Shown here: positions 1,231 to 39,805 of the stretch, piece after piece | Numbering within the stretch: the stretch's first letter is position 1 | Layout of the letters: each line of letters starts with the position of its first letter | Virus record (IMG/VR): IMGVR_UViG_3300011113_000649 | Coordinates: 1 to 64,000 of that record | Source of the DNA: a virus | DNA: 64,000 nucleotides | Reading direction: 5' to 3' (one strand) | The notes under the pieces: model-generated | What the model saw: the letters and a program-made list of their open reading frames with translations, nothing else | The model's database searches: none | What the model was told of the DNA's origin: nothing | Made by a program: the position numbers and the translations under genes

Positions 1231-2115
1231 ATGAACAATAAACCAAAAAACATATATGGCTTTTGGCATATCTCTGTTATGGGCAACAAATGGCAGGAGA
1301 TCGTCCAAGACCAGTACCAGACACTCTGTGACAGTGGACTCTTGACCGCCAGCAAAAAAGTCTATGTCTGTGTTGTTGGAGGCAACGGTACTGAGGATTT
1401 TTCGCATCTCAAGAATGTTACAATTCTAAGCAGGAATCCCAACTTAAAAGTAAGCGAGCTGTTTACTTTACGTTTTCTTAAGAAGTTCTGCAAGCATGCT
1501 AATTTAAGAACCATTATGGGTGCGTCAAGTTTGTTTTTTCATCCTGAACTACTGTCGTTCGCAGACTCTGACGATGATTCTTATGTGTGGTATATACATA
1601 CAAAAGGGGCGAGTCATGCTGGAAGTTCAAAATACCCCAATGTCTGGGATTGGAGGAAGTACATGGAATATTTTATTGTCGAGAGATGGAAAGACTGTGT
1701 AAAAGCGCTTGACGAAGGTTTCGACGTTTGTGGTGTGGAGTGGTCGTGGCACGATCTTGAGGGGAATGTCGTGAACGAGAACCCCAGTCCTCACCGCATG
1801 GGAACTGTGCCCAATGCTCATTTCTGTGGCAACTTCTGGTGGAGCACCAGCCATCACATCAATCGTTTGGACGATGATCTTGTGGCGCACGGAAACCGAT
1901 ATAACGCCGAGACATTCATAGGTGGAGGCTCAATCAGACACGGCCCGTATGGACACCTGCACATTGGCCACTACCAGCCGCCTGTCCAAAACAAACTCCC
2001 TGAATCCGGGATCAGAGTTAAAAACTTTCATTATTTTTTTAACGAAACCCCTTACCAACTCTACACAAAACCTCATCCTCGTAGTTACTACACCAGCGAC
2101 CCACCTTTAAAATGA
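1231..2115 (+). CDS. Putative glycosyltransferase (RgpF/rhamnan-synthesis-like)
   Basis: YIHTKG and HFCGNFWW motifs resemble RgpF-like and viral glycosyltransferase-like proteins; coupled to a sugar methyltransferase. Confidence 0.5.
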   Translation: MNNKPKNIYGFWHISVMGNKWQEIVQDQYQTLCDSGLLTASKKVYVCVVGGNGTEDFSHLKNVTILSRNPNLKVSELFTLRFLKKFCKHANLRTIMGASSLFFHPELLSFADSDDDSYVWYIHTKGASHAGSSKYPNVWDWRKYMEYFIVERWKDCVKALDEGFDVCGVEWSWHDLEGNVVNENPSPHRMGTVPNAHFCGNFWWSTSHHINRLDDDLVAHGNRYNAETFIGGGSIRHGPYGHLHIGHYQPPVQNKLPESGIRVKNFHYFFNETPYQLYTKPHPRSYYTSDPPLK

Positions 2116-2672
2116 GTTTATATATGGACACCCCAAGCCTATCGAGCCTATGCCTTCTACACAATACGGACAAAGTATCCTTGCACTCATACGTGGACAT
2201 TGTTTACACGCCTTTGTTTGAGCCCCGCCGTCATACACTCAAAAAACTGCTTGAAATAGGAATATGGCATGGCGCGAGTTTACGCGCGTGGCACGACTAC
2301 TTCCCTTCCGCGACCATCGTCGGTATAGACCGAGGGACTAGTCCTTTGTTTCAGAATGAGAGTCGCGTAGTAACATGTTGTGGAAACGCTTACTCTGCCG
2401 AGATGCTGGCGGCACTGCCAAATGATTTTGATATCATTATCGAGGATGGCTCGCACGAGCTGAAAGACTTGCTGTTTGTGGCAAAACACTATGTATCAAA
2501 ACTTGCTCCGGGAGGGCTGCTGATTCTGGAGGACATTGCGGAAGCCGCATGGGCAACCACGCTGCGAGAGAGCCTTGATCCGCAGTACACGGCAGAGGTG
2601 TACGATCTCCGCGAACAAAAGGGGAGATATGATGATATTTTAATGATTATTCGACAACATGGTGTCGCTTGA
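2112..2672 (+). CDS. Class I SAM-dependent (sugar O-)methyltransferase, MycE/TylE-like
   Basis: TDK..H.Y, LLEIGIWHGASLRAWHDYFP, FDIIIEDGSH, LAPGGLLILED. Confidence 0.8.
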   Translation: MSLYMDTPSLSSLCLLHNTDKVSLHSYVDIVYTPLFEPRRHTLKKLLEIGIWHGASLRAWHDYFPSATIVGIDRGTSPLFQNESRVVTCCGNAYSAEMLAALPNDFDIIIEDGSHELKDLLFVAKHYVSKLAPGGLLILEDIAEAAWATTLRESLDPQYTAEVYDLREQKGRYDDILMIIRQHGVA

Positions 2673-24522: not shown

Positions 24523-27500
24523 ATGGCTGGTGTAGACTGCGGTAAATTTGACTTAGCAAATCTACCTCAAGACGAAATGGTAGCATTAGAACAAACTATT
24601 TGGCTTAAAGCTCAAGTAGAAGAACGAATTCTTATAGTCGATGACAAACCACATGTAATTATTATATTTCCAAATAAAGTGAACGCAGGAGTTTGTGAAG
24701 ATAATAAACAGCTAAATAAACAAGTTGCACATGCTACTAATTGTCTCACAAATAATAGCAACCCTTCCCCTTCTAGTAGTTCTGGATCTGAATCCACCCA
24801 CAAAGCACGATCCATATCTGATAAAGAAGAAGTTGTTTCAACAAGCACAAGCGCACAAACCAGTTTAGGAGCTTCAGATTTAAACGCTCTGGGTTATGAA
24901 CCAGCTCCGGTTATACCAACAGCAGCAATAGTTCCTATGAAAAGTAATGTAAAAACATATGGACCTTATACTTCTTCTAATTTTAATAGTAGTTTTGGTG
25001 GTACTAGCATAGAGACTAATCCAGAGTTGTGTCCTTGGGTATTTGGTTCTGTTAGTTTAATGAATTCTGCTGGATCTTCTTTGGTTGAATCTAAAGCTCT
25101 TGGCCTAGTTAAAGCAGAAACTGGATCTGTAACTATTCCAGGATTGCCTGTTTCTGGTTTGTCTACTCTTGGTGCTCAAGTGGCTGGTGCTGGACCAAAC
25201 TTAAGTGGTATGACTTTTACATTTGGTTCTAATGGCATTAGTACAGCTTATCAATTTAGTACTTATACTCCTAAATTTGGTAATTTAACAAGTAGTCAAA
25301 TAGATAAAATAAAAAGTATTGCTAGAAATAGACAAGAACAACTTAAGTTTTTACGCAGTCAAGCTATATTACAAAATAAGATAGGCAGACAGATTCAAAA
25401 AATAAATAATGGAGTTAGAGGTAACGATAAAGGCAATCTTAAATTACCTAAAGGAGATAAAAATAGCGTACAAAGATTATTAATGGGAGAGATTTATGGA
25501 GTAACGTCTACCAAAGAAGAGACAACTACAACCCAAAAGAAAACCGTTGTCGCACTTGGAACTCTGGAAAAAGGCTCTGTTGAAATGCTAAAAGAATATG
25601 AGAAAAAAGCATACATGAGCTTGGACGGCATCTTCGGTCCTGTATCCTTAAAAGGAGATGGCTCATTACCTAGATTTACCAAATATACACCGGAGTGTCA
25701 TAAAGCGTCCACCATACAACCACAGCCTCCTTTTTCGCTAAATGAAGAGCCAGAGTCTCTTGATGAATATAATCTCAAGATTGATCAAGACCATTCTAAT
25801 CCTTTAACGAATGATTTTGCTGCTGAAGGTCATCATCATTCCGGTGCTGGCAAAGGACACGTTATAGATATTGTTGGCAGAGAATCAACTGTTCCAAACG
25901 ATGGTTTAATGACAACCTTATATACAACAGAAGAACAGGCTAGATATAGTAGTGATTATAGATTTTTGGGGTTGCGTGGCCCCTTGGTTTTGCATGGTTG
26001 GGGTTACGATACTGATGGTAAACCAATACCAAACGCAGCTGATACATTATCTGGTACTCTTAGCGGGGTTTTTAAAGAAGAATATTTACAAGATAAGTTT
26101 TTGACCAATTGGTTGCAGCATCCAACGTCTTGGCCAGTTGGCCCTATTGATTTAAGATTCGATAGAAAGCGTGGTATGTGGGTAACTCCACAGGGATATA
26201 AAATAGTAATAGCAAAACTCAAAGAAAAGCTTGAAGCTTTTAAATCCGCTAATGCGAAACTTATCAACGAAAATACTGATAAGGATCAAAAATACGGCCC
26301 TGATCTATGGGATAAAGACGGCAATAAGGTAAAAGCAACAGACGATGATGATTCTGAGGCTTTTATTAAGATTGTTGATAGAATAGGTGTAGAGATTGAA
26401 GAAGATCAATTGGTTTATGCTTATTATGACGCTTATAAGTGCGAATATGTAGCCATCCCTAACGGTAAAAGTCAGTCTGTTGTGAAATTTGCTTTGGTGC
26501 AAGATAAGAATATGGCTGATCGCACAGTAGCTGCTATATTAGTAGATGAATATGGATATCCAACTAAAAAAGATGGAATAACTCCAGTTGCAGATCAAAA
26601 CGAATTTGATGCCAATATTATTTCTGTACGAGATCCGTATCTAAGTAATTTTGATTTACCACCACCCAGAGGCCCTGGCACAATTCCTGGAGAACTAAGC
26701 GCGTTTGGTCCTGCTCTTGGTTCTCCAAGTTTATTTGAACATAAAAATGGTATAGTATTAACTGATGGATATAATAATAATTATAAAACAGTAGGACCAT
26801 TTATTGGTTATGCTCTTAAAAAAGAAGGACAAACTACTACTTATACTCCGGGTATTGGCGAGATTGTAGGATCATCAGGAACAACCTACGATATTATAAC
26901 TTTAGAAAGTTTTGCTAAATATATTACTGGTAAAATTGGTACTAAAAGTGGTGTATTTAATGGTTCTTTTCTTGGCGCTAGAGTTGGACATAGACAGGGT
27001 GTAATTCCTGTTGGTAGAGGCCATGGAAATTTACCAAATAATCTTAATGCTATTGTTCGTAATAATATGTTTGGCTTTATTGGGGCTCATGGTTTTGTTC
27101 TTGGAGATATTGTTGACAATCCAGTTGGTAATGGCAATATCGTTAATGATGTTGATGGATGCAAATTCATAGCCGCATTAGATAATGAACTTTCTACTAC
27201 CACTCACTTAATATATGATATTATTGAGTGTGAAAGATCAGCTCTTATTTGTAGTTGGCATGTTAAGAATCAAAACTATGCCAATAGTTTAAACCTATCC
27301 AGTGTACAGTTTGATGATCCACAATATATAGAAGGTCAATTTGCTCAAGGGTTTATGTGGAATCCAGCAGTAAGCTTAACTAATTATCAACAGACATATT
27401 TACAAAATAACGGAACTCTAAAGAATAATCTTAAAACTGGAGAAATTATAAAAGGATCTAGAGGCGCAGCATTATTGACAGGAATTACAGGACAGGGTGA

Positions 27501-28134
27501 ACTAATTTATACGATCACACTTGTAACCGAAATAGCAAACGTTGCCCAAAGGTATATTACTAGTAATAATCCTGGTTTATTTGGTAGTTCTGATTTTAGT
27601 GGAAATCGTAAAATCGATCAGGATAGCGATTATTTTTGGGATGGCTTATCTCCAGACCAGATAGAAGATGATAAAAAACCAAAAATAGATATGATTAACG
27701 GTCAACAATGGATGACCTATCATTCTGGTATAGTTGTAGCTAGTTGGGACGAATATGGTACAAGATTGCCCGCATTTAATGGGCAAGTTGAAGATTGTAA
27801 ATATAAAATTATATATGCTCAAGAAGTTCCGGTTATTATGACGTGTATAGCACAAAGTAAATTCACCCCCGAAGATGACAAAGGGGTGGCTCTAGAGCAA
27901 GCCCTAGCTAATATTTTACCATCTTGTCAAGGTGCTGATCGTCAACCCATACCATCCATTTTAGCGGGTAATGTTTTTAATCCAATGGGTTGTGGAGCAG
28001 AGGTTGGGGATTTAGTAACTATACAAAGAGTATATGTTGGATCTGATATGGCTCAACAAGAGGCTGGTCATCCAGCGTGTAATTATAAGTATATTGTTAT
28101 ACAAACAGGAAAATTAGTTGCGGCAGCGTTATGA
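24523..28134 (+). CDS. Large tail tip/central fibre-like protein
   Basis: AGGAGA RBS; 1203 aa; end of the tail block. Confidence 0.5.
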   Translation: MAGVDCGKFDLANLPQDEMVALEQTIWLKAQVEERILIVDDKPHVIIIFPNKVNAGVCEDNKQLNKQVAHATNCLTNNSNPSPSSSSGSESTHKARSISDKEEVVSTSTSAQTSLGASDLNALGYEPAPVIPTAAIVPMKSNVKTYGPYTSSNFNSSFGGTSIETNPELCPWVFGSVSLMNSAGSSLVESKALGLVKAETGSVTIPGLPVSGLSTLGAQVAGAGPNLSGMTFTFGSNGISTAYQFSTYTPKFGNLTSSQIDKIKSIARNRQEQLKFLRSQAILQNKIGRQIQKINNGVRGNDKGNLKLPKGDKNSVQRLLMGEIYGVTSTKEETTTTQKKTVVALGTLEKGSVEMLKEYEKKAYMSLDGIFGPVSLKGDGSLPRFTKYTPECHKASTIQPQPPFSLNEEPESLDEYNLKIDQDHSNPLTNDFAAEGHHHSGAGKGHVIDIVGRESTVPNDGLMTTLYTTEEQARYSSDYRFLGLRGPLVLHGWGYDTDGKPIPNAADTLSGTLSGVFKEEYLQDKFLTNWLQHPTSWPVGPIDLRFDRKRGMWVTPQGYKIVIAKLKEKLEAFKSANAKLINENTDKDQKYGPDLWDKDGNKVKATDDDDSEAFIKIVDRIGVEIEEDQLVYAYYDAYKCEYVAIPNGKSQSVVKFALVQDKNMADRTVAAILVDEYGYPTKKDGITPVADQNEFDANIISVRDPYLSNFDLPPPRGPGTIPGELSAFGPALGSPSLFEHKNGIVLTDGYNNNYKTVGPFIGYALKKEGQTTTYTPGIGEIVGSSGTTYDIITLESFAKYITGKIGTKSGVFNGSFLGARVGHRQGVIPVGRGHGNLPNNLNAIVRNNMFGFIGAHGFVLGDIVDNPVGNGNIVNDVDGCKFIAALDNELSTTTHLIYDIIECERSALICSWHVKNQNYANSLNLSSVQFDDPQYIEGQFAQGFMWNPAVSLTNYQQTYLQNNGTLKNNLKTGEIIKGSRGAALLTGITGQGELIYTITLVTEIANVAQRYITSNNPGLFGSSDFSGNRKIDQDSDYFWDGLSPDQIEDDKKPKIDMINGQQWMTYHSGIVVASWDEYGTRLPAFNGQVEDCKYKIIYAQEVPVIMTCIAQSKFTPEDDKGVALEQALANILPSCQGADRQPIPSILAGNVFNPMGCGAEVGDLVTIQRVYVGSDMAQQEAGHPACNYKYIVIQTGKLVAAAL

Positions 28135-28164: not shown

Positions 28165-28494
28165 ATGTCATCACATTCAGGTTGTAATTATTCTCAGCTA
28201 ATACCCGATCCAACAGGGGCTATATATCGTTTTTTTAATCAGCCAATAGAACAGATACCAAAATGGGACGCTAACAAATTACAAATATTAGCCCATCCTT
28301 CAGGCGGCGGGCTTCATTGGTTAACAGCAGAAGCTTGTACCGGCGTTATTACATGCATTAGATTAGAAGAAAGCGGATTGGTATTTGATGTTGCCACTAT
28401 TTTTGCGTTAAAGATTATTGAATCTGACAGTGGTTGTCCTCCGATTCCAACAGTCAAATGTTCTGGTGATGACGAATATTATTATGGCCCTTAG
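28165..28494 (+). CDS. Small Cys-containing tail-tip protein ending in DDEYYYGP
   Basis: AGGA RBS; last + strand gene. Confidence 0.55.
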   Translation: MSSHSGCNYSQLIPDPTGAIYRFFNQPIEQIPKWDANKLQILAHPSGGGLHWLTAEACTGVITCIRLEESGLVFDVATIFALKIIESDSGCPPIPTVKCSGDDEYYYGP

Positions 28495-28502
28495 AAGATG
28501 GG

Positions 28503-29261
28503 TCAGCCTATGCCGAACTTGCGGCCCAGCTGATTGAGCTTGGCTGCTCTCTCTTTACAACCACATGGGCGACCAAGCGCTTTGCTGGCCCGCTCCTCGG
28601 TGATACCCACGGCCGATAGGCCAGCGGTCACCATATCTCCGAGACCCAGCCGTGGCTTTAATAACTCTGCCCCCATATGTGGTAGGCCGAGTCGGTCCAT
28701 ACACTCATTCCAGCACTTCTTTCTTCGCGGGCTGAGCCCCTCTACACTGCGATACCCAGCGCCACGCTGGTAGTGAAGGATGCCGTTCGACAACATGCGG
28801 AAGTGGCAGTCTGCGGCGCATGGTGGCCACGCCGGATCGTCAGTCGCTATCCAGTCCTGCTGAACCGTGTCGTACTGGCCCGTGAACGGGACGCCGAGGT
28901 CGCGTTTCAGGTAGTCGGCGGAGATGTCGATCCGCGACAACCACGAAATAAACGACGGATAGAGAACGTAGTTCCAACTCGCAGGCTCGCGATTGACCGA
29001 GTTGCCCGGCACGAGCGGACGGGTGAGCACCATATCCCACTCTAGTACCACCGAGGGCTCGTCAGGCAGTTCGTGAATGATGGATCCCAGGATCATTGGC
29101 GACAGGCCCGCCCCGGTCGTAATCGTCGTAAACTCGTGGAAGTGGTCAATCGTTCCCATGGGTCGCAGGATCACAATGCGGTCGGCTGGGTGGTGCCTCC
29201 GTATCGACGCTACCTGCGCTGCCAGAAACTCACGACTATGTACCATTAGATAGATATTCAT
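28503..29261 (-). CDS. GT-A-like putative glycosyltransferase with C-terminal GLGD..RPCGC module (GC-rich)
   Basis: Start MNIYLMV in ATGA overlap with the upstream gene; VVLEWDMVL DxD-like motif; ILHY. Confidence 0.5.
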   Translation of the reverse strand: MNIYLMVHSREFLAAQVASIRRHHPADRIVILRPMGTIDHFHEFTTITTGAGLSPMILGSIIHELPDEPSVVLEWDMVLTRPLVPGNSVNREPASWNYVLYPSFISWLSRIDISADYLKRDLGVPFTGQYDTVQQDWIATDDPAWPPCAADCHFRMLSNGILHYQRGAGYRSVEGLSPRRKKCWNECMDRLGLPHMGAELLKPRLGLGDMVTAGLSAVGITEERASKALGRPCGCKERAAKLNQLGRKFGIG

Positions 29262-29779
29262 GGGCGGTCTATAAATAGTTGCGGCATCCGGTTGCAGCCT
29301 TGGCCGATACAGTTTGGCATCTGATACAGGGCTACTGGCCCGGCGACCGGATAGCAGTCCTCCGCAGTTGTCGCGACTCCACGCCAGTAGCCAGCTCCGT
29401 CGCCGCCTACCATCGGGCCGCATACGGTCACTATTAACATCCACTTGCCAGAGCAGGAGTCGTACTGACCACTGGCTGTCCACAAAGACGGAAACGGAGC
29501 AGGTAGTGGTTCTATGGGCTCGGGCACACCCTCCAGCCGCAGCGACACCGGCTGCTCGACAGGTGCGAGGCCAGGTCGATAGATGTTGGCGGATGAAGGA
29601 GAGCAGACTTGCGTGATCTTCATGCACCGGGTATCTTGGTCAGCCGCCACCACCCCGCAACAACAGCCCGGCCGACACGGGCACGGGCCATCGCACGAGT
29701 CACAACAACAATTCTTACTAGCTGCTAATTTACCATCAACAACTAAAATTTTCCCATCAGATGTAAAAAGAGGACTCAT
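29258..29779 (-). CDS. Cys-rich protein, chimeric (AT-rich 5' end, GC-rich remainder)
   Basis: ILVVDGKLAASKNCCCDSCDGPCPCRPGCCC; TAATG coupling to upstream gene. Confidence 0.6.
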   Translation of the reverse strand: MSPLFTSDGKILVVDGKLAASKNCCCDSCDGPCPCRPGCCCGVVAADQDTRCMKITQVCSPSSANIYRPGLAPVEQPVSLRLEGVPEPIEPLPAPFPSLWTASGQYDSCSGKWMLIVTVCGPMVGGDGAGYWRGVATTAEDCYPVAGPVALYQMPNCIGQGCNRMPQLFIDRP

Positions 29780-30099
29780 TATTTATCCTTAGTCCACTTG
29801 TGCCATCCTTTATTTGGTAAATAATTGCCTTCGTCATCTTTGCGTTTTGGAAATAGAGTTCCACCTTTTTTATGTTGACCAAATGCTAATATAGCACCAC
29901 AATCAGCACAACGAAGCTCATAGTAATCATTACCTTCTACGCTACGAACCACAAATCTAAGATTAGTGCTACCGCACAGACCACATTTTTCTTCACCAAA
30001 AATTTCTTGAATGATAGCAAGTTCTTTAAAAACTTCTTTTTGTCCAGAACCTTCTAATTCAAACTCTAGTTTATCACTAACTTTATATTTGAGCTTCAT
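29779..30099 (-). CDS. Zn-ribbon hypothetical protein
   Basis: CGLC...CADC. Confidence 0.7.
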   Translation of the reverse strand: MKLKYKVSDKLEFELEGSGQKEVFKELAIIQEIFGEEKCGLCGSTNLRFVVRSVEGNDYYELRCADCGAILAFGQHKKGGTLFPKRKDDEGNYLPNKGWHKWTKDK

Positions 30100-30835: not shown

Positions 30836-31624
30836 TCAGTCTCCTATATAAATTACTTTGGTGTTTATTAAATTATGTTCTTCAATTTGTTTTAATTTTT
30901 CTACTAGTTTATTAAATATTAATAATGCTCTAGCCTGTGAGAAGTCTTTTGTTTGTTTGATTCTAATCAAAAATAAACCCTTACCAATAATCAGTCCCGT
31001 TTTTTTATCATCATACTTTTGATTACGACTAAGTACGTCATCACCCCACACAGGAGAGAAGTGTGATGGGCCATCAACCTCTATGGCTGTATTTAATTTA
31101 GATACAAATAGGTCGATTTGCAACTTTGTATTTAGTATACTCTGTTCTTTATGGAACTCTACCGCATATCCACAAGTTAATAATTCTTTAAACAAATATT
31201 TCTCTAGTTTTGATCCCGTTTTTCCCGCTTCTCTAACAGCGATATTAGCTTGTTTAAGTATGTATTGTTTCTCATCATCTGTTTTATTGTTCCAATTGAT
31301 TTTGGCTTTTTGTTTTCTTTCCTCTAGTTGTTTGGTGTCTAAATTTGTCCACGATTCTAAAACAGATAATCCTATTTTTTCTTTAACCTTGGATGATCTT
31401 TTTTTACCCTTGGTTGGATGTTGTGTTTTTCCATTATTAAGAGCATTTTTTTGTGCTTCGCTTTTATCTCTTATTGTTATATTTAGCTTGATCGCGTCTC
31501 TACGAATTTTATTAGCATATGTACCAGTTTCTTTAGCTATATCCGCAAAACTTTTTTGGCCTATCTCATAATGTTGTTTTAGAAATTGTTTTTTTTGTTT
31601 ATCGTTAAGATTTTTATAATTCAT
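30836..31624 (-). CDS. Vsr/DUF559-like endonuclease with N-terminal HTH and NUMOD3-like repeat (homing-endonuclease-like)
   Basis: QIDLFV..AIEVDGPSH..YD; GKKRSSKVKEKIG. Confidence 0.65.
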   Translation of the reverse strand: MNYKNLNDKQKKQFLKQHYEIGQKSFADIAKETGTYANKIRRDAIKLNITIRDKSEAQKNALNNGKTQHPTKGKKRSSKVKEKIGLSVLESWTNLDTKQLEERKQKAKINWNNKTDDEKQYILKQANIAVREAGKTGSKLEKYLFKELLTCGYAVEFHKEQSILNTKLQIDLFVSKLNTAIEVDGPSHFSPVWGDDVLSRNQKYDDKKTGLIIGKGLFLIRIKQTKDFSQARALLIFNKLVEKLKQIEEHNLINTKVIYIGD

Positions 31625-32572: not shown

Positions 32573-33321
32573 ATAATTATATGTGTAGAATTGTCTTGTA
32601 AAATATCTGTTTTTTCTATAAGCAGGGAGTGCCTATAGTTTGGAGCACTAAATAGTATCGCTGATTTGTCGGAGTTTCTTATCGCTATAAATCTATCCAT
32701 TTCTTCGTACACAATTGAATTAGCATGATTAACAATATTATTTATATCATTATTAATGGAGGTTGTAGACAAAATAAATCTATATTTTTTGTTCAGATTC
32801 ACGACCTCGTGTAAAATATCTTCATATTTTTTGTCGAACAACATAGTTTGGACACGCCATTTACATTTAAGACCAGCGTTTTCTATTATTTCTTTAATCA
32901 GATTATATGGTAATTTTTTATCGTCTTGCTGATATCTGATAAAAATAATTTTACTAGGTTTTATGGTTAGGTTATGTAATATTGTAGTTAATTCTTTTAC
33001 ATCGTTGTCTGTAATTTTTTTGAGATCAATCACAAGCAAGTAATGCAAATAGTTGCTTTCTTTGTATTTATTAATTTTTTCTTCTATTGATAGATGATTT
33101 AATTGTTTTTTTTCAAACCAACTATTTTCCCTGTATCCTATACATTTCTTATTATTTATAATATAGAATTCTTTATCATCATCATATGCTTCAAGTATTT
33201 CTATATTTTTTGTCTTATATAAAGAAATGTAATCTAAATGACAATCTATTTGAGTAATATCCTCATATTTTGCAAAAACACAATTTTTACATGTTGTGTG
33301 AATTGGATTTATTGTTGACAT
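32569..33321 (-). CDS. Hypothetical protein with N-terminal Cys cluster
   Basis: HTTCKNC..C..C. Confidence 0.6.
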   Translation of the reverse strand: MSTINPIHTTCKNCVFAKYEDITQIDCHLDYISLYKTKNIEILEAYDDDKEFYIINNKKCIGYRENSWFEKKQLNHLSIEEKINKYKESNYLHYLLVIDLKKITDNDVKELTTILHNLTIKPSKIIFIRYQQDDKKLPYNLIKEIIENAGLKCKWRVQTMLFDKKYEDILHEVVNLNKKYRFILSTTSINNDINNIVNHANSIVYEEMDRFIAIRNSDKSAILFSAPNYRHSLLIEKTDILQDNSTHIII

Positions 33322-34955
33322 CTTAGAAAGTCCTCTATTTCTAGTTTTTCTTCATTAAATCTCATGCTTTCGGCAGCCACTTTATTATTTAGATATTGCT
33401 CTAGCGCCTGTACGGCATCTTTAAACAAAAAGGTTTTTATAGTGCCATTTCTAGCAATCAGTTTAGTAGATAGATCTCTGATAATCTGTTGAACATGGGA
33501 AGTATTTATTAAATATGGTTCATTAATAATATTATTGCAAATATATTCCACAAACTCTCTAGGGTTTAAATTTCCAGGAACCGTCATATTTTCGTGTTTG
33601 GTAGTAAATTTTTCTCTTGCATTCCAGGGTACTTTATTTGTAATACTTAATTGATCAAAACATTCATCCCAGGTGTTATATACATTGTCCCATGTGTATA
33701 TGGATAAGCATTTTTCTCTGATCTTTTTAGAATTAGATATTTTTATATCATCAGACATTTCGTTAAAATATTTATATAAAAGATCTGTAGTGAAATCGTT
33801 ATCAGGATACACTCTATCAGCATTGGTTTCTAGTTCTCTAAACATTCTTTTTACCGGAATTTTTATTCCATTTAAATTTTCTACAATTTCTGTCATAGCA
33901 CTATAATCAACCGAAGCTATTTGTATGCCACACGCAGCGGCTTCTACTTGAGGCATACCAAACCCCTCGCATATAGCATATTGAATGAAGATATCAAACA
34001 AATTATATATTTCATTCAGTTCTGTGGTTGATACACTATTTGCAACACTGGCAAAACACGCAGTATTATCTACATTACAATGCTTGCATCTTATTAAGGC
34101 ATTATTAAATTTTGAAGGAAAACATTTGTGACAATTTCTGCATGTGTATGTGAAATATGTTTTATCTAATAACCCAAACTCTAATAATAGACTAGGTAAA
34201 TCCCATCCATTTTCTTCGGGATATGATGTATGTAAATATAGATATGTCTTATTGTATTTATCGGTATTTTTAATTTTATGCAAATAGTTCTTAAAAGTTA
34301 AAAGAATGTCAGGTATTAGTTTGCGCTTTTGATTCCTCATTACCAATCCAACTATATCATAGTCATCTTCAAAATATTTTCTTTTGTGAGCTTTTTTATT
34401 CTCAATCGGATAAAACTCATTAGGATTAATACCAGCATTGGCTATCTTGGGAAATATATTCAGTTTATTTCCACCACCAATTCTTAGTGTTGTTTTTGCC
34501 CACTCAGTATATGGAACAACTACATCCGCGTTTGCAAAAGTATAATACCAGTCAGTTTTTTGGGGGGCAGAATCTACTGTTGGCATTAAGACCCAGTGAA
34601 AGTGTCTACGAAATGGACTGGTTTCTTGATAAGCACTCATCCAGTAGTCTCTTACATCGAAAACTATATCCGGCTTAAAATCGAAGATGGCCCGATTAAA
34701 TCTCCACGACCCAAACTGATGTGCAGGATTACTTCTATATGAGTCAAACCTTTTATCGTCAGGGCCGACAGCATTAGGATAAAATTTCCAAGGAATTGTT
34801 CTGATCTCTGGTCTGCTACAGTCGGCATAACACCCAAGCTCTGCTACTTCATATTTGCCAGAGTTGTGAAGTCTAGTAAGAAGTTCTTTACCATATACCC
34901 CATAACCACTAGCAATAAAACTAGAATCATTAGCAATAAATACTCTTTTTTTCAT
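33309..34955 (-). CDS. GT-B (GT4-like) glycosyltransferase with inserted Zn ribbon
   Basis: RNQKRK, EGFGMPQVEAAACG; CRNC...CKHC insertion. Confidence 0.8.
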   Translation of the reverse strand: MKKRVFIANDSSFIASGYGVYGKELLTRLHNSGKYEVAELGCYADCSRPEIRTIPWKFYPNAVGPDDKRFDSYRSNPAHQFGSWRFNRAIFDFKPDIVFDVRDYWMSAYQETSPFRRHFHWVLMPTVDSAPQKTDWYYTFANADVVVPYTEWAKTTLRIGGGNKLNIFPKIANAGINPNEFYPIENKKAHKRKYFEDDYDIVGLVMRNQKRKLIPDILLTFKNYLHKIKNTDKYNKTYLYLHTSYPEENGWDLPSLLLEFGLLDKTYFTYTCRNCHKCFPSKFNNALIRCKHCNVDNTACFASVANSVSTTELNEIYNLFDIFIQYAICEGFGMPQVEAAACGIQIASVDYSAMTEIVENLNGIKIPVKRMFRELETNADRVYPDNDFTTDLLYKYFNEMSDDIKISNSKKIREKCLSIYTWDNVYNTWDECFDQLSITNKVPWNAREKFTTKHENMTVPGNLNPREFVEYICNNIINEPYLINTSHVQQIIRDLSTKLIARNGTIKTFLFKDAVQALEQYLNNKVAAESMRFNEEKLEIEDFLRCQQ

Positions 34956-35433: not shown

Positions 35434-35462
35434 ATTATAACGTTCCCGTGGTGTGGCGTCAA
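35434..35462 (-). promoter_or_regulatory. Sigma70-type promoter for ssb
   Basis: TTGACG-17 nt-TATAAT; -35 overlaps the upstream TGA. Confidence 0.8.
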
Positions 35463-37078
35463 GTTCGTGCGACGTATGCTTTTTCTACCACAAAACTATC
35501 TTTGGTCCTCGACCTAGTTCCACACACAATAATAACATTTCCTGAGAACAATATAGATTTATATTTTTTATAAACCTCTGGAAAGAATATGACAGAATCC
35601 ACGGACCCTGTACCATCAGACATTGTGACAAAGCTCATTTCCTCGCCAGGAGTTTTTCCATTTTTTGTTTTAATTGCATTTATAAAGTCTATTTCACCAC
35701 CCATTATTAAGTTATTTGTATTAATACCATTCTTAAAATCTCTACAAGTAGTATTGGTCATGCTAATATCATACATATCAACTTTAGAACAAGTGATTGA
35801 ACATCCTAAATTAGAGTCCTCTACATCCGCAATCCACTCTGGATTATCATCCAAAGAATATGGAGGATTTTGTAACATAGTTATTGCATCGCTAATAATT
35901 TTTTTTCTGTTTTTATTACTTTTACCATTTATAAATAAATCATCTAAAGCTGTCTTAAGTGATGTATAGTTTTGAATATTCTCTATAATATATGCTGATT
36001 CTTTTTTTGTCAACATTGATATTATTTCATATTCAAATAACATACAAGTTCTGGTTTTATGTACAAAAGATACCGCACCACTTTCTATTAATGCTTTAGC
36101 TGCAGTTGAATTAATATTAATTAAAATCTTAAATAATATTTCTAACCACGATAATTCTAAAAGAGATTGATTTAATTCTAAAACAATTTTTTGCAGTTTA
36201 GTAAAAACAGAAGAGCCTACTCCCTTAATGTCTGTTAATCCGAAATAAATATCGTTATTTTTTAAAATAAAAAATTCATTCATTATTCTCAGATCTGGAG
36301 TTTTGATATTAACATCCATTTCGTTGGCGTTTTGCACCAAGGCTTTAATCTCTTCATGAGGATCAATTTTATCTTTTGCAAATCTTAGATATGAAGCAAA
36401 AAATACTTTGGGGAAGTGAGCCTTAGCATATGCCGATAAGTAAGCATTAATAGCATAGCTTACACTATGAGACTTATTAAATGAATATCTTTGGCTCTTC
36501 TCAATCCAGCCGAAAATTTGTTCGGCCTCGGACTGATTAACAATTTGTGTTTTTGTTACGCCTTCTAAAAATTTAGTCCTGATTTTTGCCATTTCTTCTG
36601 GTTTTTTCTTACCAATAGCCTTACGCAACATATCGGCTTCTTGTAAATTGAACCCAGCTATGTTCTTAGCAATTTCCATTGCTTGTTCTTGATATATCAT
36701 TTCACCATATGTGGTTTTTAGAATAGGTTCTAAGGCTGGATGAAAATAGTCTAAAGATTCTTCCCCATTCTTTTTATCTATATAATGATTTGTAACGCTT
36801 TTTCCATTACGAATCGCCTCTAGCGTACCCGGCCTTAGAATAGCAATCAGAGCGGACAACTGCTCTATATTTTCTGGTTTAAGTTTTTTAGCTATTGATC
36901 TACCTAGTCTAGATTCTAGCTGAAATATTCCTTTAGTATTACCATCACCAATAAGATTCCAGGTTCTAGAACAATCTAGATTTATTTTTTCTATAGATGG
37001 ATCAAAGCTAATACTCTTACCGTGATCGTCTACCAAATCAAAACAACAACCACAACTATAACTAAATTTTTTACTCAT
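35459..37078 (-). CDS. dnaE: DNA polymerase III alpha, C-terminal part (fingers, HhH, OB)
   Basis: GIFQLES, LRPG, IYQEQ, RKAIGKK, YSFNKSH, GLTDIKGVG; ATG 37078 overlaps the dnaQ stop. Confidence 0.92.
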   Translation of the reverse strand: MSKKFSYSCGCCFDLVDDHGKSISFDPSIEKINLDCSRTWNLIGDGNTKGIFQLESRLGRSIAKKLKPENIEQLSALIAILRPGTLEAIRNGKSVTNHYIDKKNGEESLDYFHPALEPILKTTYGEMIYQEQAMEIAKNIAGFNLQEADMLRKAIGKKKPEEMAKIRTKFLEGVTKTQIVNQSEAEQIFGWIEKSQRYSFNKSHSVSYAINAYLSAYAKAHFPKVFFASYLRFAKDKIDPHEEIKALVQNANEMDVNIKTPDLRIMNEFFILKNNDIYFGLTDIKGVGSSVFTKLQKIVLELNQSLLELSWLEILFKILININSTAAKALIESGAVSFVHKTRTCMLFEYEIISMLTKKESAYIIENIQNYTSLKTALDDLFINGKSNKNRKKIISDAITMLQNPPYSLDDNPEWIADVEDSNLGCSITCSKVDMYDISMTNTTCRDFKNGINTNNLIMGGEIDFINAIKTKNGKTPGEEMSFVTMSDGTGSVDSVIFFPEVYKKYKSILFSGNVIIVCGTRSRTKDSFVVEKAYVART

Positions 37079-37760
37079 TAAACGAATTCTTAAACTTAAC
37101 CTTTGAAGCAATATTTCTATGTAGTTTCATAAACCTGATCATAATTTCTGCGGTATCTTTGACGTCTTTAATAGCGTCATGAGCACCCTTTTTATCTATG
37201 CCAAAATATTCTCGTAAAGAATCCAGAGTATAACTTTTCAAGTCGGGATTGTGCTCAAACCAATAAAAAATTATATTCATTACGTCTATAACATCTCTAG
37301 GATAAAAAATATCAGATGTATTTTCTTTATTAGTATTACCATATTTTTGACTTAATCTATCTATAATTTTAAGATCAAATCTATTAATATTATATCCAGC
37401 AGCTATTGGTGCGCTAAATTGACTCTTCTTGGAAGATCTTGAATGATATTTATCTAGATAATTAATAAACATATTCCAAGACTGTTGCTGCTTGGGGTAG
37501 TTTTTCCATTCATTCAAAACATCGTCTTTAGAACAGCCTTTGACCTTTGAATGAAAATCTAAAATATCTGTAGTATATACATAATCATTATTTTGTTCCA
37601 AAACTTCTGGCTTAAAATTAATATTAAACTCTGAATTCGGTATAATTTCTAGTTTAATTGGATCAATAATTACGGCCGCAATTTGTACAGGACTACAGGC
37701 TTTAGGATCCGAGCCATCGGTTTCAAAATCAAAAACACAAATTTTGTTATAATTAATCAT
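37071..37760 (-). CDS. dnaQ: DEDDh 3'-5' exonuclease (DnaQ/epsilon-like)
   Basis: VFDFETDG, GYNINRFD, HDAIKD. Confidence 0.88.
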   Translation of the reverse strand: MINYNKICVFDFETDGSDPKACSPVQIAAVIIDPIKLEIIPNSEFNINFKPEVLEQNNDYVYTTDILDFHSKVKGCSKDDVLNEWKNYPKQQQSWNMFINYLDKYHSRSSKKSQFSAPIAAGYNINRFDLKIIDRLSQKYGNTNKENTSDIFYPRDVIDVMNIIFYWFEHNPDLKSYTLDSLREYFGIDKKGAHDAIKDVKDTAEIMIRFMKLHRNIASKVKFKNSFNE

Positions 37761-37936: not shown

Positions 37937-39805
37937 CTAGACTCCTTGTTGTAATAAAAATCTAATGGTCATAATTTTATCTAACATCGCAACACCTAAA
38001 ATATCAAACTTAATAATTCCTATGCTTTCTAGATCTTGCATTTCCATGCCAGCAATCAGTTGTTTATTTTTGCTATCGTAAACCATAGGACAAATTTCGT
38101 TTAATGGTTCAGAACTTATAGCGATTCCAGCCGCGTGTTTTGATTGATTTGATTTAGTTCCCTCTAGCCGTATCGCTTGTTCAAATCTTTTTGCTAGTGG
38201 TCCTTGTAGTTCTCCACTTTCATCAATATAGCACCACTCTTTGAGTTTGTCAACATTGTTTTCTAGTGACCAGCGAATGATAGAAGATTCGCCAGTTTCT
38301 TCTTTCATTTCTTGAAGTTCATCGGCTATTTTAGCTTCGTCAGGTATGTTTTTAGTAATTCTATTCATTTCCTCAAAGCTAACATTACCATATACTCTTA
38401 AAACGTCTTTTAGCGCCCCGCGTCCCTTAATGGTATTAAAAGTAATCATTTGAGAAACTTTATCATACCCATACTTATTTTTAATATATTCAATGATAAC
38501 TTCTCTCTTATCTATGGGAACGTCAACATCAATATCTGGCATACTAATATGATCTTCTGAATTACGTCCAGCATTATAAAATCTATCGAACAATAAATTA
38601 TATCTTATTGGATCAATACTAGTAATCCCAATTAAGTAAGAAACCAGACAACCAGCAGCAGAGCCTCGACCGGGTCCAGGTAACCAATTATTTTTTCTTA
38701 CAAAGTTCACTATGTCTTGTACAATTAGAAAATAACTCGACAGTCCAGCACCCTGTAAAACATCTAGTTCATATTTAATTCTATCTAAATATTCTTGTTG
38801 ATTATTTTTATCTATTACTGGATTAATTTTATCTCTCCAGCCTATTCTGCATAGTTCCCTGAGATATTCATCTGGATTCATATTTTTAGGACATTGAAAC
38901 GGTGGCAATTTAGGCTTATTTAGAATATTATAGTGTTCCACCAAATCCGCCACATAATTTGTATTTTCAATTTCTTGTGATGTATGAATTTCTTTCATTT
39001 CCTCTTGAGAAGGAATATGATAATTTTCTGAAGTAAAAAAGCAAGACAACGGCGTTTCTTCGTCATTACTAATTTTTCTACTAATTTCTGGAAATGTTGT
39101 TTTTAGGTTATTGCAAAGCAAAATCCTTTGATCTATTGCGTCCTCTTTTTTACAATAGTGAGCATCTGGAGTGCAAATAACTTTTGTATTAGTTTCTTGA
39201 GCTATTTTTCTGACAGCATTTGTTAAAAGTTCTTGAACTGGTAAATTTTGTTTATCTATCAGTTGAGCCTCTAAAAATACTTTGTCTTGAAAAATTTGCT
39301 TCAAATATTCAATATGTTTTTTACCAGATTCTAACCAGTTCTCTTTTAACTGATATGATTCTAAGATTTGGTCGGATAGAGTAGAGCCTAGATGTCCAGT
39401 AATAGCAATCAAATTTCCGCTATTTATTTTGGCTATAGCTTCTAGATTAAGTCTAGGTTTATGATAATAATGCTCTGGTTTGTTAGATTCAGAAACTATC
39501 TTAATAAGATCAAGCCAACCAGCATGATTTTGTGCAAGAATGATAAAATGAGCTAACGACCTATTATCTTTATCTTGAATGGCTGGGTCTTTTTCGCAAA
39601 TATATAATTCACAACCCAGGATCGGTTTAATACCAGCCTCTTTCATAGCGCTATAGAATTTAACAGATCCGGCAATATTGCCATGATCTGTCAATGCGCA
39701 TGATGATGCCCCTATCTCTTTGCATCTGGCGGCAATTTGTTCTGGTTGACTTAATCCGTCCAATAACGAAAAATGTGAATGTACATGCAGAGGAATATAG
39801 TTCAT
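37937..39805 (-). CDS. dnaE: DNA polymerase III alpha, N-terminal part (PHP, palm, thumb)
   Basis: HVHSHFSLLDG, TDHGN, GPGRGSAAG, MPDIDVD, HAAG, KFDILG. Confidence 0.95.
   Translation of the reverse strand: MNYIPLHVHSHFSLLDGLSQPEQIAARCKEIGASSCALTDHGNIAGSVKFYSAMKEAGIKPILGCELYICEKDPAIQDKDNRSLAHFIILAQNHAGWLDLIKIVSESNKPEHYYHKPRLNLEAIAKINSGNLIAITGHLGSTLSDQILESYQLKENWLESGKKHIEYLKQIFQDKVFLEAQLIDKQNLPVQELLTNAVRKIAQETNTKVICTPDAHYCKKEDAIDQRILLCNNLKTTFPEISRKISNDEETPLSCFFTSENYHIPSQEEMKEIHTSQEIENTNYVADLVEHYNILNKPKLPPFQCPKNMNPDEYLRELCRIGWRDKINPVIDKNNQQEYLDRIKYELDVLQGAGLSSYFLIVQDIVNFVRKNNWLPGPGRGSAAGCLVSYLIGITSIDPIRYNLLFDRFYNAGRNSEDHISMPDIDVDVPIDKREVIIEYIKNKYGYDKVSQMITFNTIKGRGALKDVLRVYGNVSFEEMNRITKNIPDEAKIADELQEMKEETGESSIIRWSLENNVDKLKEWCYIDESGELQGPLAKRFEQAIRLEGTKSNQSKHAAGIAISSEPLNEICPMVYDSKNKQLIAGMEMQDLESIGIIKFDILGVAMLDKIMTIRFLLQQGV

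Follow-up and report, generated by a model that had tools for sequence, protein, structure and literature searches.

A GC-rich two-gene cassette joined to a constant triple-cysteine tag in an uncultured GC-poor phage

Cassettes in which a constant N-terminus carries a variable C-terminus are well known among phage fibre proteins, as in the G segment of Mu, the C segment of P1 and the short N-terminal anchor peptides of Klebsiella and SP6-like tailspikes. Here we describe a locus of comparable design in an uncultured phage. The window that we analysed comprises 64,000 nucleotides (nt), positions 1 to 64,000 of the IMG/VR record IMGVR_UViG_3300011113_000649, a phage of 105,553 bp judged 76% complete. 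Two genes on its minus strand, here called A and B, are our subject (coordinates in Table 1). Gene A opens with a constant peptide of 26 residues, the tag, which ends in three cysteines (Cys) and whose codons are poor in guanine plus cytosine (GC); the rest of gene A, its Cys-rich body, and the whole of gene B form a GC-rich block. We show that this block is an imported foreign two-gene cassette and that the tag heads a large family of phage proteins with unrelated bodies.

The gp38-type adhesins of T2/T6-like phages attach by a constant N-terminal part and owe their specificity to a variable C-terminal one (Trojet et al. 2011, PMC3157838). Like the tagged proteins they are small, lie beside tail-fibre genes and are exchanged by recombination among related phages. 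The two share no sequence similarity, however, and whereas gp38 varies in hypervariable segments on one glycine-rich scaffold, the bodies here are wholly unrelated folds behind a constant part of only 26 residues with an invariant triple Cys; gp38 attaches to the fibre, while the attachment of the tagged family is putative. With the Mu and P1 cassettes the locus has in common that the constant N-terminus stays while the variable C-terminus and the next gene, or a part of it, move together; among relatives of the tagged locus the imported DNA ends inside the next gene. It differs from them in having neither invertase nor inverted repeats, and in being exchanged by lateral transfer between phages that differ in GC rather than by inversion inside one genome. 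Polymorphic toxins (Zhang et al. 2012, PMC3482391) join a conserved N-terminal part to a diverse C-terminal part through recombination at a short boundary motif. A short conserved boundary motif, an exchanged C-terminal part and a co-varying next gene are found here as well, but the tagged genes lie in lytic-looking phage genomes beside tail and glycosyltransferase genes, no toxin or immunity domain was found in 20 long tagged members, and the genes downstream are glycosyltransferases or the module proteins described below. Virion glycosylation in mycobacteriophages (Freeman et al. 2023, as cited in PMC12619734) targets the C-termini of capsid and tail-tube proteins, and the likeness to that system lies in phage-encoded cytoplasmic glycosyltransferases beside the structural genes they decorate. 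For the tagged locus a glycan and its target are putative. Phage proteins with a constant anchor and a variable body are already known, and what stands out here is the size of the family, the invariant triple-Cys boundary and the repeated imports across a large GC gap.

The composition break and the extent of the island

The GC content of positions 28503-29705 is 59.5%, against 33.7% for the remaining record. In 200-bp windows it runs at 0.56-0.65 over 28500-29699 and at 0.28-0.41 on either side, and the island is the highest-GC 1200-bp window of the whole record, about 5.7 standard deviations (SD) over the mean (0.339, SD 0.045). Maximum-likelihood change points in GC were placed at 28486 and 29704. 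The break at 29704 falls inside gene A, directly past the three Cys codons (codons 24-26, 29702-29710), and the other coincides with the stop of gene B. GC at third codon positions (GC3) follows the same borders, being 0.12 in codons 1-26 of gene A, 0.65 in the rest of the gene, 0.69 in gene B and 0.19-0.29 in the four neighbouring genes. Because it is GC3 that carries the composition signal, the island reflects foreign codon usage and not amino-acid content, and a GC rise driven by the latter was ruled out.

An earlier note on this DNA, made from the letters alone, had claimed a sharp composition break within the open reading frame (ORF) 29258-29779, with a GC-rich part that completes a Cys-rich protein, adds an ATGA-coupled GT-A-like gene and stops where the two directions of transcription converge. 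These claims are borne out. GC windows, change points and GC3 agree on the break, the Cys-rich body continues in frame past the triple Cys, the ATG of gene B overlaps the stop of gene A as ATGA, and the stop of gene B lies 8 nt from that of the convergent gene; the fold of gene B, taken up below, agrees as well. No repeat of more than 6 nt common to both island ends was found. Insertion by a homing endonuclease was ruled out: flanking repeats are absent, and the HNH-like gene (30836-31624, minus strand), whose 262-aa (amino acid) product PHROGs label HNH/homing endonuclease, sits at an unchanged position in 79 of 80 relatives, as a core gene and not a mobile endonuclease would.

The tag and its variable bodies

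Relatives of the locus were collected through the zinc (Zn)-ribbon gene at the 5' flank of gene A. It has 215 relatives in IMG/VR, of which the best 80 (83-95% identical) supplied the loci compared, and tagged genes in these loci were found by a local profile search. The tag heads a gene in 25 of the 80, with bodies of 51-1281 aa. In all 25 the two genes share a strand and the tagged gene comes second, directly past the Zn-ribbon gene in 24 and about 1.1 kb further downstream in one (L024). The 26-residue consensus reads M-S-P-L-Y-L-Y-N-G-K-L-L ... K-L-A ... C-C-C, and each tag-bearing genome examined has a single copy. Behind it the bodies of 17 distinct tagged proteins are unrelated by BLASTP, bar one pair. 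In DNA alignments of relatives good identity persists from the 3' end of the Zn-ribbon gene over the ribosome-binding site and through the tag, and is abruptly lost past TGTTGTTGT. The Zn-ribbon protein, whose gene stands just upstream of the variable tagged gene in tag-bearing loci, is itself conserved at 83-95%, compared with 54-75% for the adjacent 240-aa protein and about 30-67% for tail proteins.

A tag profile built from 17 tags was searched against 1.84 billion representative proteins and returned 804 clusters at an expect value (E) of 1e-3 or less, nearly all aligned at residues 1-30. Body statistics were taken from the best 150 of these 804 matches. Among them 149 have a Cys run near the N-terminus, of exactly three Cys in 145 of the 149, and the run ends at residue 26 in 128. 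The 144 bodies of at least 30 aa fall into 84 groups without a BLAST link. The proteins have a median length of 202 aa, the longest reaching 1281 aa and some only 38-80 aa; their bodies are acidic, with 5.4% Cys, 2.1% Lys and 2.0% Arg, and often open with a Cys-rich stretch or a Pro/Thr or Ser linker past the triple Cys. One protein with tag-like repeats (P0152) proved to be an unrelated repeat protein and was set aside. The family had no match in cultured phages, and searches with gene A and 20 long members gave no homology to PHROG families, to gp38 or to known fibre or receptor-binding domains.

The tag of gene A is identical at 21 of 26 residues to that of the GC-poor relative L026 (counted on the alignment). 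Its body has only two relatives among 5.8 billion proteins: P0061, of 168 aa, is 59% identical by BLASTP, collinear over its full length and begins with the same N-terminal tag, and P0062, of 151 aa, is also 59% identical. This incongruence across the junction, with the tag closest to L026 and the body matching only P0061 and P0062, supports import. Both P0062, which resembles A, and P0001, which resembles B (73%), are reported on a contig of 24,120 bp, and these equal lengths suggest that A and B travel together. Gene A belongs to no Pfam or PHROG family, a protein atlas search with it gave no usable lead, and no longer fused forms of its body were found, which is weak evidence.

The island is not the only one of its kind. 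Most bodies in GC-poor relatives have a native GC3 of 0.16-0.27, and at least three other body types are GC-rich behind GC-poor tags (tag GC3 0.08-0.27, body GC3 0.59-0.66). These are a body of 368 aa in L032 (GC3 0.62), one of 340 aa in L104 (0.59), and one of 164 aa (0.66) in L106-L109 and L124, where L106-L109 are four contigs from four metagenomes and the same body recurs in a complete 159-kb genome (G010). In all three the GC jump falls at the same triple-Cys boundary as in the window; imports at this boundary are repeated and independent. Judged by GC3 in 15-codon blocks, the islands of relatives end inside the next gene, which codes for about 150 aa, some 25-75 codons in, and stop at or before its G-x-G-T-E-L-K-K...C-S-C-N motif. 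One further locus (L043) is a mosaic with a break within the body. The cassette of the relatives thus has the tag as one border and the conserved C-terminal half of the next gene as the other; donors must have possessed homologues of each. The window represents the extreme, with GC-rich DNA all the way downstream, the module included, and an island that reaches the operon end. An identical stretch of about 70 residues, spanning the end of the GC-rich N-terminal part and the module that follows, occurs in the 150-aa module protein of three loci with different bodies (L124:7722-8186, L104:2854-3366 and L043:7605-8090), which suggests one recently spread segment recombined with different bodies.

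Two phages with a GC content near 55% (G006 and G007, on contigs 112 and 123 kb long) bear the tag as well. Tagged genes thus exist in a GC-richer pool too, and the 55%-GC phages are a plausible source of donors. The earlier note had proposed that a conserved peptide stays while bodies are exchanged, a view upheld by the unrelated bodies in the 25 tag-bearing loci and by the 804 protein clusters. Its further proposal that the modules come from higher-GC phages or from the host agrees with the finding of the tag in 55%-GC phages, while on the host side a scan of 185,579 species genomes found nothing. A full-length collinear homologue, which the note had counted as contrary to its idea, does exist in P0061; the idea stands, P0061 carrying the same universal tag. 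The break point could equally be a domain boundary kept by selection and not a mechanistic hot spot.

Gene B, its helical module and the surrounding genes

Gene B matches no Pfam family at E of 0.1 or less and no PHROG family at E of 0.01 or less, and neither A nor B had a match in cultured phages in DNA and protein searches. An AlphaFold2 (AF2) model of gene B reached a predicted local distance difference test score (pLDDT) of 87.7. The best structural match of residues 1-202 is 6mw5, a Skp1 glycan alpha-galactosyltransferase (VIA-align Z 11.1, root-mean-square deviation 4.0 over 172 residues), followed by glycogenin, GlyE and LgtC at Z of about 10 and by dozens of GT8/GT6 chains at Z 9-10; Foldseek gave a probability of 1.00 with E 1.6e-4. 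An E-W-D motif (residues 74-76), past a strand at 70-74, aligns with the L-D-L-D (D-x-D) of PF04488-bearing proteins with Glu as its first acidic residue, and D76 is invariant across 16 sequences. The model makes gene B a predicted GT8-like glycosyltransferase, and its GT-A fold, a Rossmann-like alpha/beta/alpha arrangement, is assigned with confidence. With the GT8 enzymes (glycogenin, LgtC, GlyE and 6mw5) it shares this fold, at Z 9.5-11.1 over 172-179 residues, and it has a candidate acidic-x-D motif at the expected strand end. It differs from them in an identity of only 8-14%, in the lack of a Pfam match, in having E-x-D and not D-x-D, and in an extra C-terminal three-helix module that is absent from GT8 enzymes. 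Full-length relatives of gene B are few (P0001, P0002 and P0003, at 73%, 60% and 54% identity).

The C-terminal motif GLGD..GIT..RPCGC..R..LN, already remarked from the letters, is present and belongs to a module conserved in many other proteins. AF2 places its helices at 207-217, 222-229 and 235-249. The module is 70-85% identical in about 50 proteins with differing N-terminal domains, some of them PF04488 or PF05704, and homologues of gene B that bear these two families have only this C-terminal module in common with it. It also stands alone, as phage proteins of 55-82 aa at 29-65% GC, on viral and metagenome contigs of 34-64% GC. Stand-alone or terminal copies of the G-L-G-D...G-I...C-G-C-K-E-R...L-N module were noted at L007:1320-1538, in L098-L100, at L005:9983-10231 and at L003:9785-10210, and the module is likewise the C-terminus of PF04488-type glycosyltransferases. 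It belongs to no Pfam family and has a weak PHROG match only, to phrog_32048 (function unassigned). A protein atlas search with it returned only viral mini-proteins without names, and a metagenome scan with gene B gave module-bearing genes only and did not recover close homologues. Between this module and the motif of the next gene in relatives (148-aa proteins) there is a weak hhalign match (E 0.0017, probability 16%).

A two-gene layout like that of the window was observed at L002:8384-9567, on a viral contig of 68% GC, where a 154-aa Cys-rich ORF overlaps the start of a B-like gene with a glycosyltransferase-like domain and the module. Immediately upstream of the pair are a tape-measure-like gene and two more ORFs. 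The start of the Cys-rich ORF is tag-like, with a match that is not significant.

Table 1. Position of the island and its neighbours in the window
Feature	Position	Strand	Description or basis
GC-rich island, body of gene A and whole gene B	28503-29704	-	GC, change points, GC3
Gene A	29258-29779	-	173 aa; tag and variable body
Constant N-terminal tag of gene A	29702-29779	-	26 codons, GC-poor, Cys-Cys-Cys end at 29702-29710
Variable body of gene A, including stop codon	29258-29701	-	147 aa, Cys-rich, GC-rich
Gene B	28503-29261	-	252 aa; GT-A-fold domain and helical module
Gene B residues 1-202, predicted GT-A fold (GT8-like) domain	28656-29261	-	AF2, VIA-align, Foldseek
Gene B residues 205-252 and stop, three-helix G-L-G-D...C-G-C module	28503-28649	-	AF2, homologues
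Zn-ribbon gene, conserved 5' flank	29779-30099	-	106 aa; stop overlaps gene A start (TAATG)
Convergent gene ending the tail module, island boundary	28165-28494	+	109 aa; stop 8 nt from gene B stop
Distal tail-module protein, C-terminal half variable	24523-28134	+	1203 aa; comparison with relatives

On the tail side of the island, homologues of the convergent 109-aa gene adjoin a homologue of the 1203-aa tail protein in L058, L028 and L033. Residues 1-645 of the latter are found in many relatives, and residues 649-1203 only in L028, L033/L034 and L058. This second part, present in just 4 of 80 loci, is a further variable region beside the cassette and is probably host-facing. No convincing terminator was found between the convergent genes (28494/28503), and the late-promoter motif that had been suggested, GGTGTATAA, occurs at chance level.

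Further along the minus strand a DNA polymerase is encoded in two ORFs (35459-37111 and 37937-39805) that cover consecutive parts of a PHROG profile, 42-611 and 613-1055. Between them lies an ORF of 229 aa (37071-37760), and the gene may be split, or a mobile element may have come between its parts. A 548-aa glycosyltransferase of GT1/GT4 type is encoded at 33309-34955 (minus strand; phrog_2170, E 4e-27). At the left end of the window a block of moderately raised GC holds a PF13578 methyltransferase at 2112-2672 (plus strand), beside a 294-aa gene that had been termed RgpF-like and has no Pfam match. In this region (842-2672), previously named cassette 1 and paired with the present island, the methyltransferase domain was confirmed and nothing further; no Pfam glycosyltransferase was found there.

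Readings of the tagged locus

In the window the tagged gene abuts the distal end of the tail module, on the opposite strand. In G006 and G007 it lies 6 nt past a gene for a 757-aa collagen-like tail fibre, itself preceded by a 689-aa fibre gene, and these fibre genes match PHROG tail-fibre families with E 1e-134 and 1e-121. Behind the tagged gene, at least 11 of the 25 loci, with 9 distinct gene types among them, have HtrL_YibB-like (PF09612) and PF11397 N-acetylglucosamine (GlcNAc)-transferase genes; most of these also carry the 150-aa module protein and several a 337-aa gene. L058, the closest relative by its tail, has GT1 and GT2 genes at the position of the tag, without a tagged gene. A tail-associated, exposed protein fits best with the location on the tail side, with the linkers and extracellular-type composition of the bodies, with their extreme diversity and with glycosyltransferases as neighbours, and the product of gene A is most likely a tail-associated, possibly glycosylated, variable protein.

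We regard it as fairly probable that the whole is best explained by a GC-poor phage's import of a cassette into a tail-linked family of constant tag and variable body. Gene A belongs to a very large, hitherto undescribed phage protein family with a constant 26-residue tag and an exchangeable body. The GC-poor phage would have retained its own tag and ribosome-binding region, while a two-gene unit, drawn from a pool of phage genes with about 60% GC, took the place of all that lay downstream. This unit would consist of the Cys-rich body and a GT8-like glycosyltransferase fused to a small helical module, with the recombination join exactly at the tag/body boundary and the unit extending to the operon end. 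The tag may dock or oligomerise the protein on the tail, the body would be an exposed, disulfide-rich, host-facing domain, and the neighbouring glycosyltransferases may modify the body or other virion proteins. The locus would operate as do other phages' adhesin and fibre cassettes, with their constant N-terminus and variable C-terminus.

Several observations weigh against this account. In the window's family the tagged gene comes last in the operon on the replication side and is encoded on the other strand from the tail genes. Two complete relatives (152 and 244 kb) are without the tag, and the tagged protein is therefore dispensable for this phage family. No Pfam domain was found in 20 long family members, and for gene A AF2 gave only a low-scoring model (pLDDT 42.5), too poor for a fold search, with beta strands from about residue 79. 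The donor of the island was not found, the best homologue of gene B being 73% identical. Little nucleotide identity is to be expected between the tag DNA of GC-rich and GC-poor phages, and the crossover may have been either homologous, or illegitimate with selection acting on it. Gene A as it stands here comes from a single metagenome assembly and is found on one contig only (P0060).

Some of these points would suit a rather different function, in which the tagged proteins serve counter-defence as effectors that are packaged, ejected or intracellular, the constant peptide directs their targeting or processing, and the glycosyltransferases modify DNA in an anti-restriction island that diversifies in an arms race. 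The polymorphic internal proteins of T4 carry a capsid-targeting sequence, and extreme diversity of bodies behind a short constant peptide would agree with such a role. So would a gene that is accessory, missing from complete relatives, and placed at the end of the replication-side operon, next to the region of DNA polymerase and ribonucleotide reductase. PHROGs gave the HtrL-like gene a weak match to a beta-glucosyl-hydroxymethylcytosine (HMC) alpha-glucosyltransferase (E 0.005), and phage glycosyltransferases that hypermodify DNA are known (Pyle 2024, as cited in PMC12619734). We nevertheless consider this function unlikely. Acidic, Lys/Arg-poor and Cys-rich bodies with Pro/Thr linkers look extracellular and are a poor fit for a DNA-associated or cytoplasmic effector, and in the 55%-GC phages the tagged gene lies directly past tail-fibre genes. 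Gene B is structurally most like GT8 enzymes that act on proteins or glycans, and PF11397 is a family of protein GlcNAc-transferases.

The single assembly also raises the question of a chimera, in which the assembler inserted a 1.2-kb piece from some GC-rich genome into the contig of a GC-poor phage; we hold this to be very improbable. Two crossovers would be required within 1.2 kb, between ends that share no repeat of more than 6 nt. The junction in gene A is in frame and exactly at the family-wide tag/body boundary, and the other junction leaves two intact convergent stops 8 nt apart. The homologous body P0061 naturally bears the same tag, and this type of junction was independently assembled elsewhere, with one body in four metagenomes and a complete 159-kb genome. 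Very improbable, too, is a reading in which the tag serves as the leader of a secreted, glycosylated product made during infection, like a glycocin or another ribosomally synthesised and post-translationally modified peptide, with the Cys-rich body as that product and the glycosyltransferases as its tailoring enzymes. A conserved N-terminal leader, a hypervariable Cys-rich C-terminus, adjacent glycosyltransferases and members of just 38-80 aa recall such peptides. Yet bodies can be as long as 840-1281 aa (median about 200 aa), the tag is followed by neither a double-Gly nor any other cleavage motif, and the loci have no transporter, peptidase or cyclase genes.

Keeping to the import of a cassette into a tail-linked family, we can offer, as a tentative extension, that the triple-Cys tag would serve as the universal mount in a phage display system of a kind not seen before. 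On the tail it would carry unrelated disulfide-rich domains by the hundred, perhaps stapled between chains through Cys. These would be glycosylated by co-transferred enzymes and traded as cassettes between phages that differ widely in GC and so probably in host. The tagged family is found wholly in uncultured phages and has no Pfam or PHROG model, and the tag offers a sequence handle for harvesting hundreds of Cys-rich, probably surface-exposed domains and for tracing gene flow among phage lineages of differing GC. The steady pairing with glycosyltransferases, from a protein GlcNAc-transferase family and of GT8-like type, makes virion or protein glycosylation in aquatic phages testable. The G-x-G...C-x-C helical module, widespread both as a stand-alone phage mini-protein and as the tail of glycosyltransferases, is a second element of interest. 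Constant-anchor, variable-tip proteins are a route by which phages change host, and with more than 800 distinct bodies behind a tag of 26 residues the family would rank among the largest such systems.

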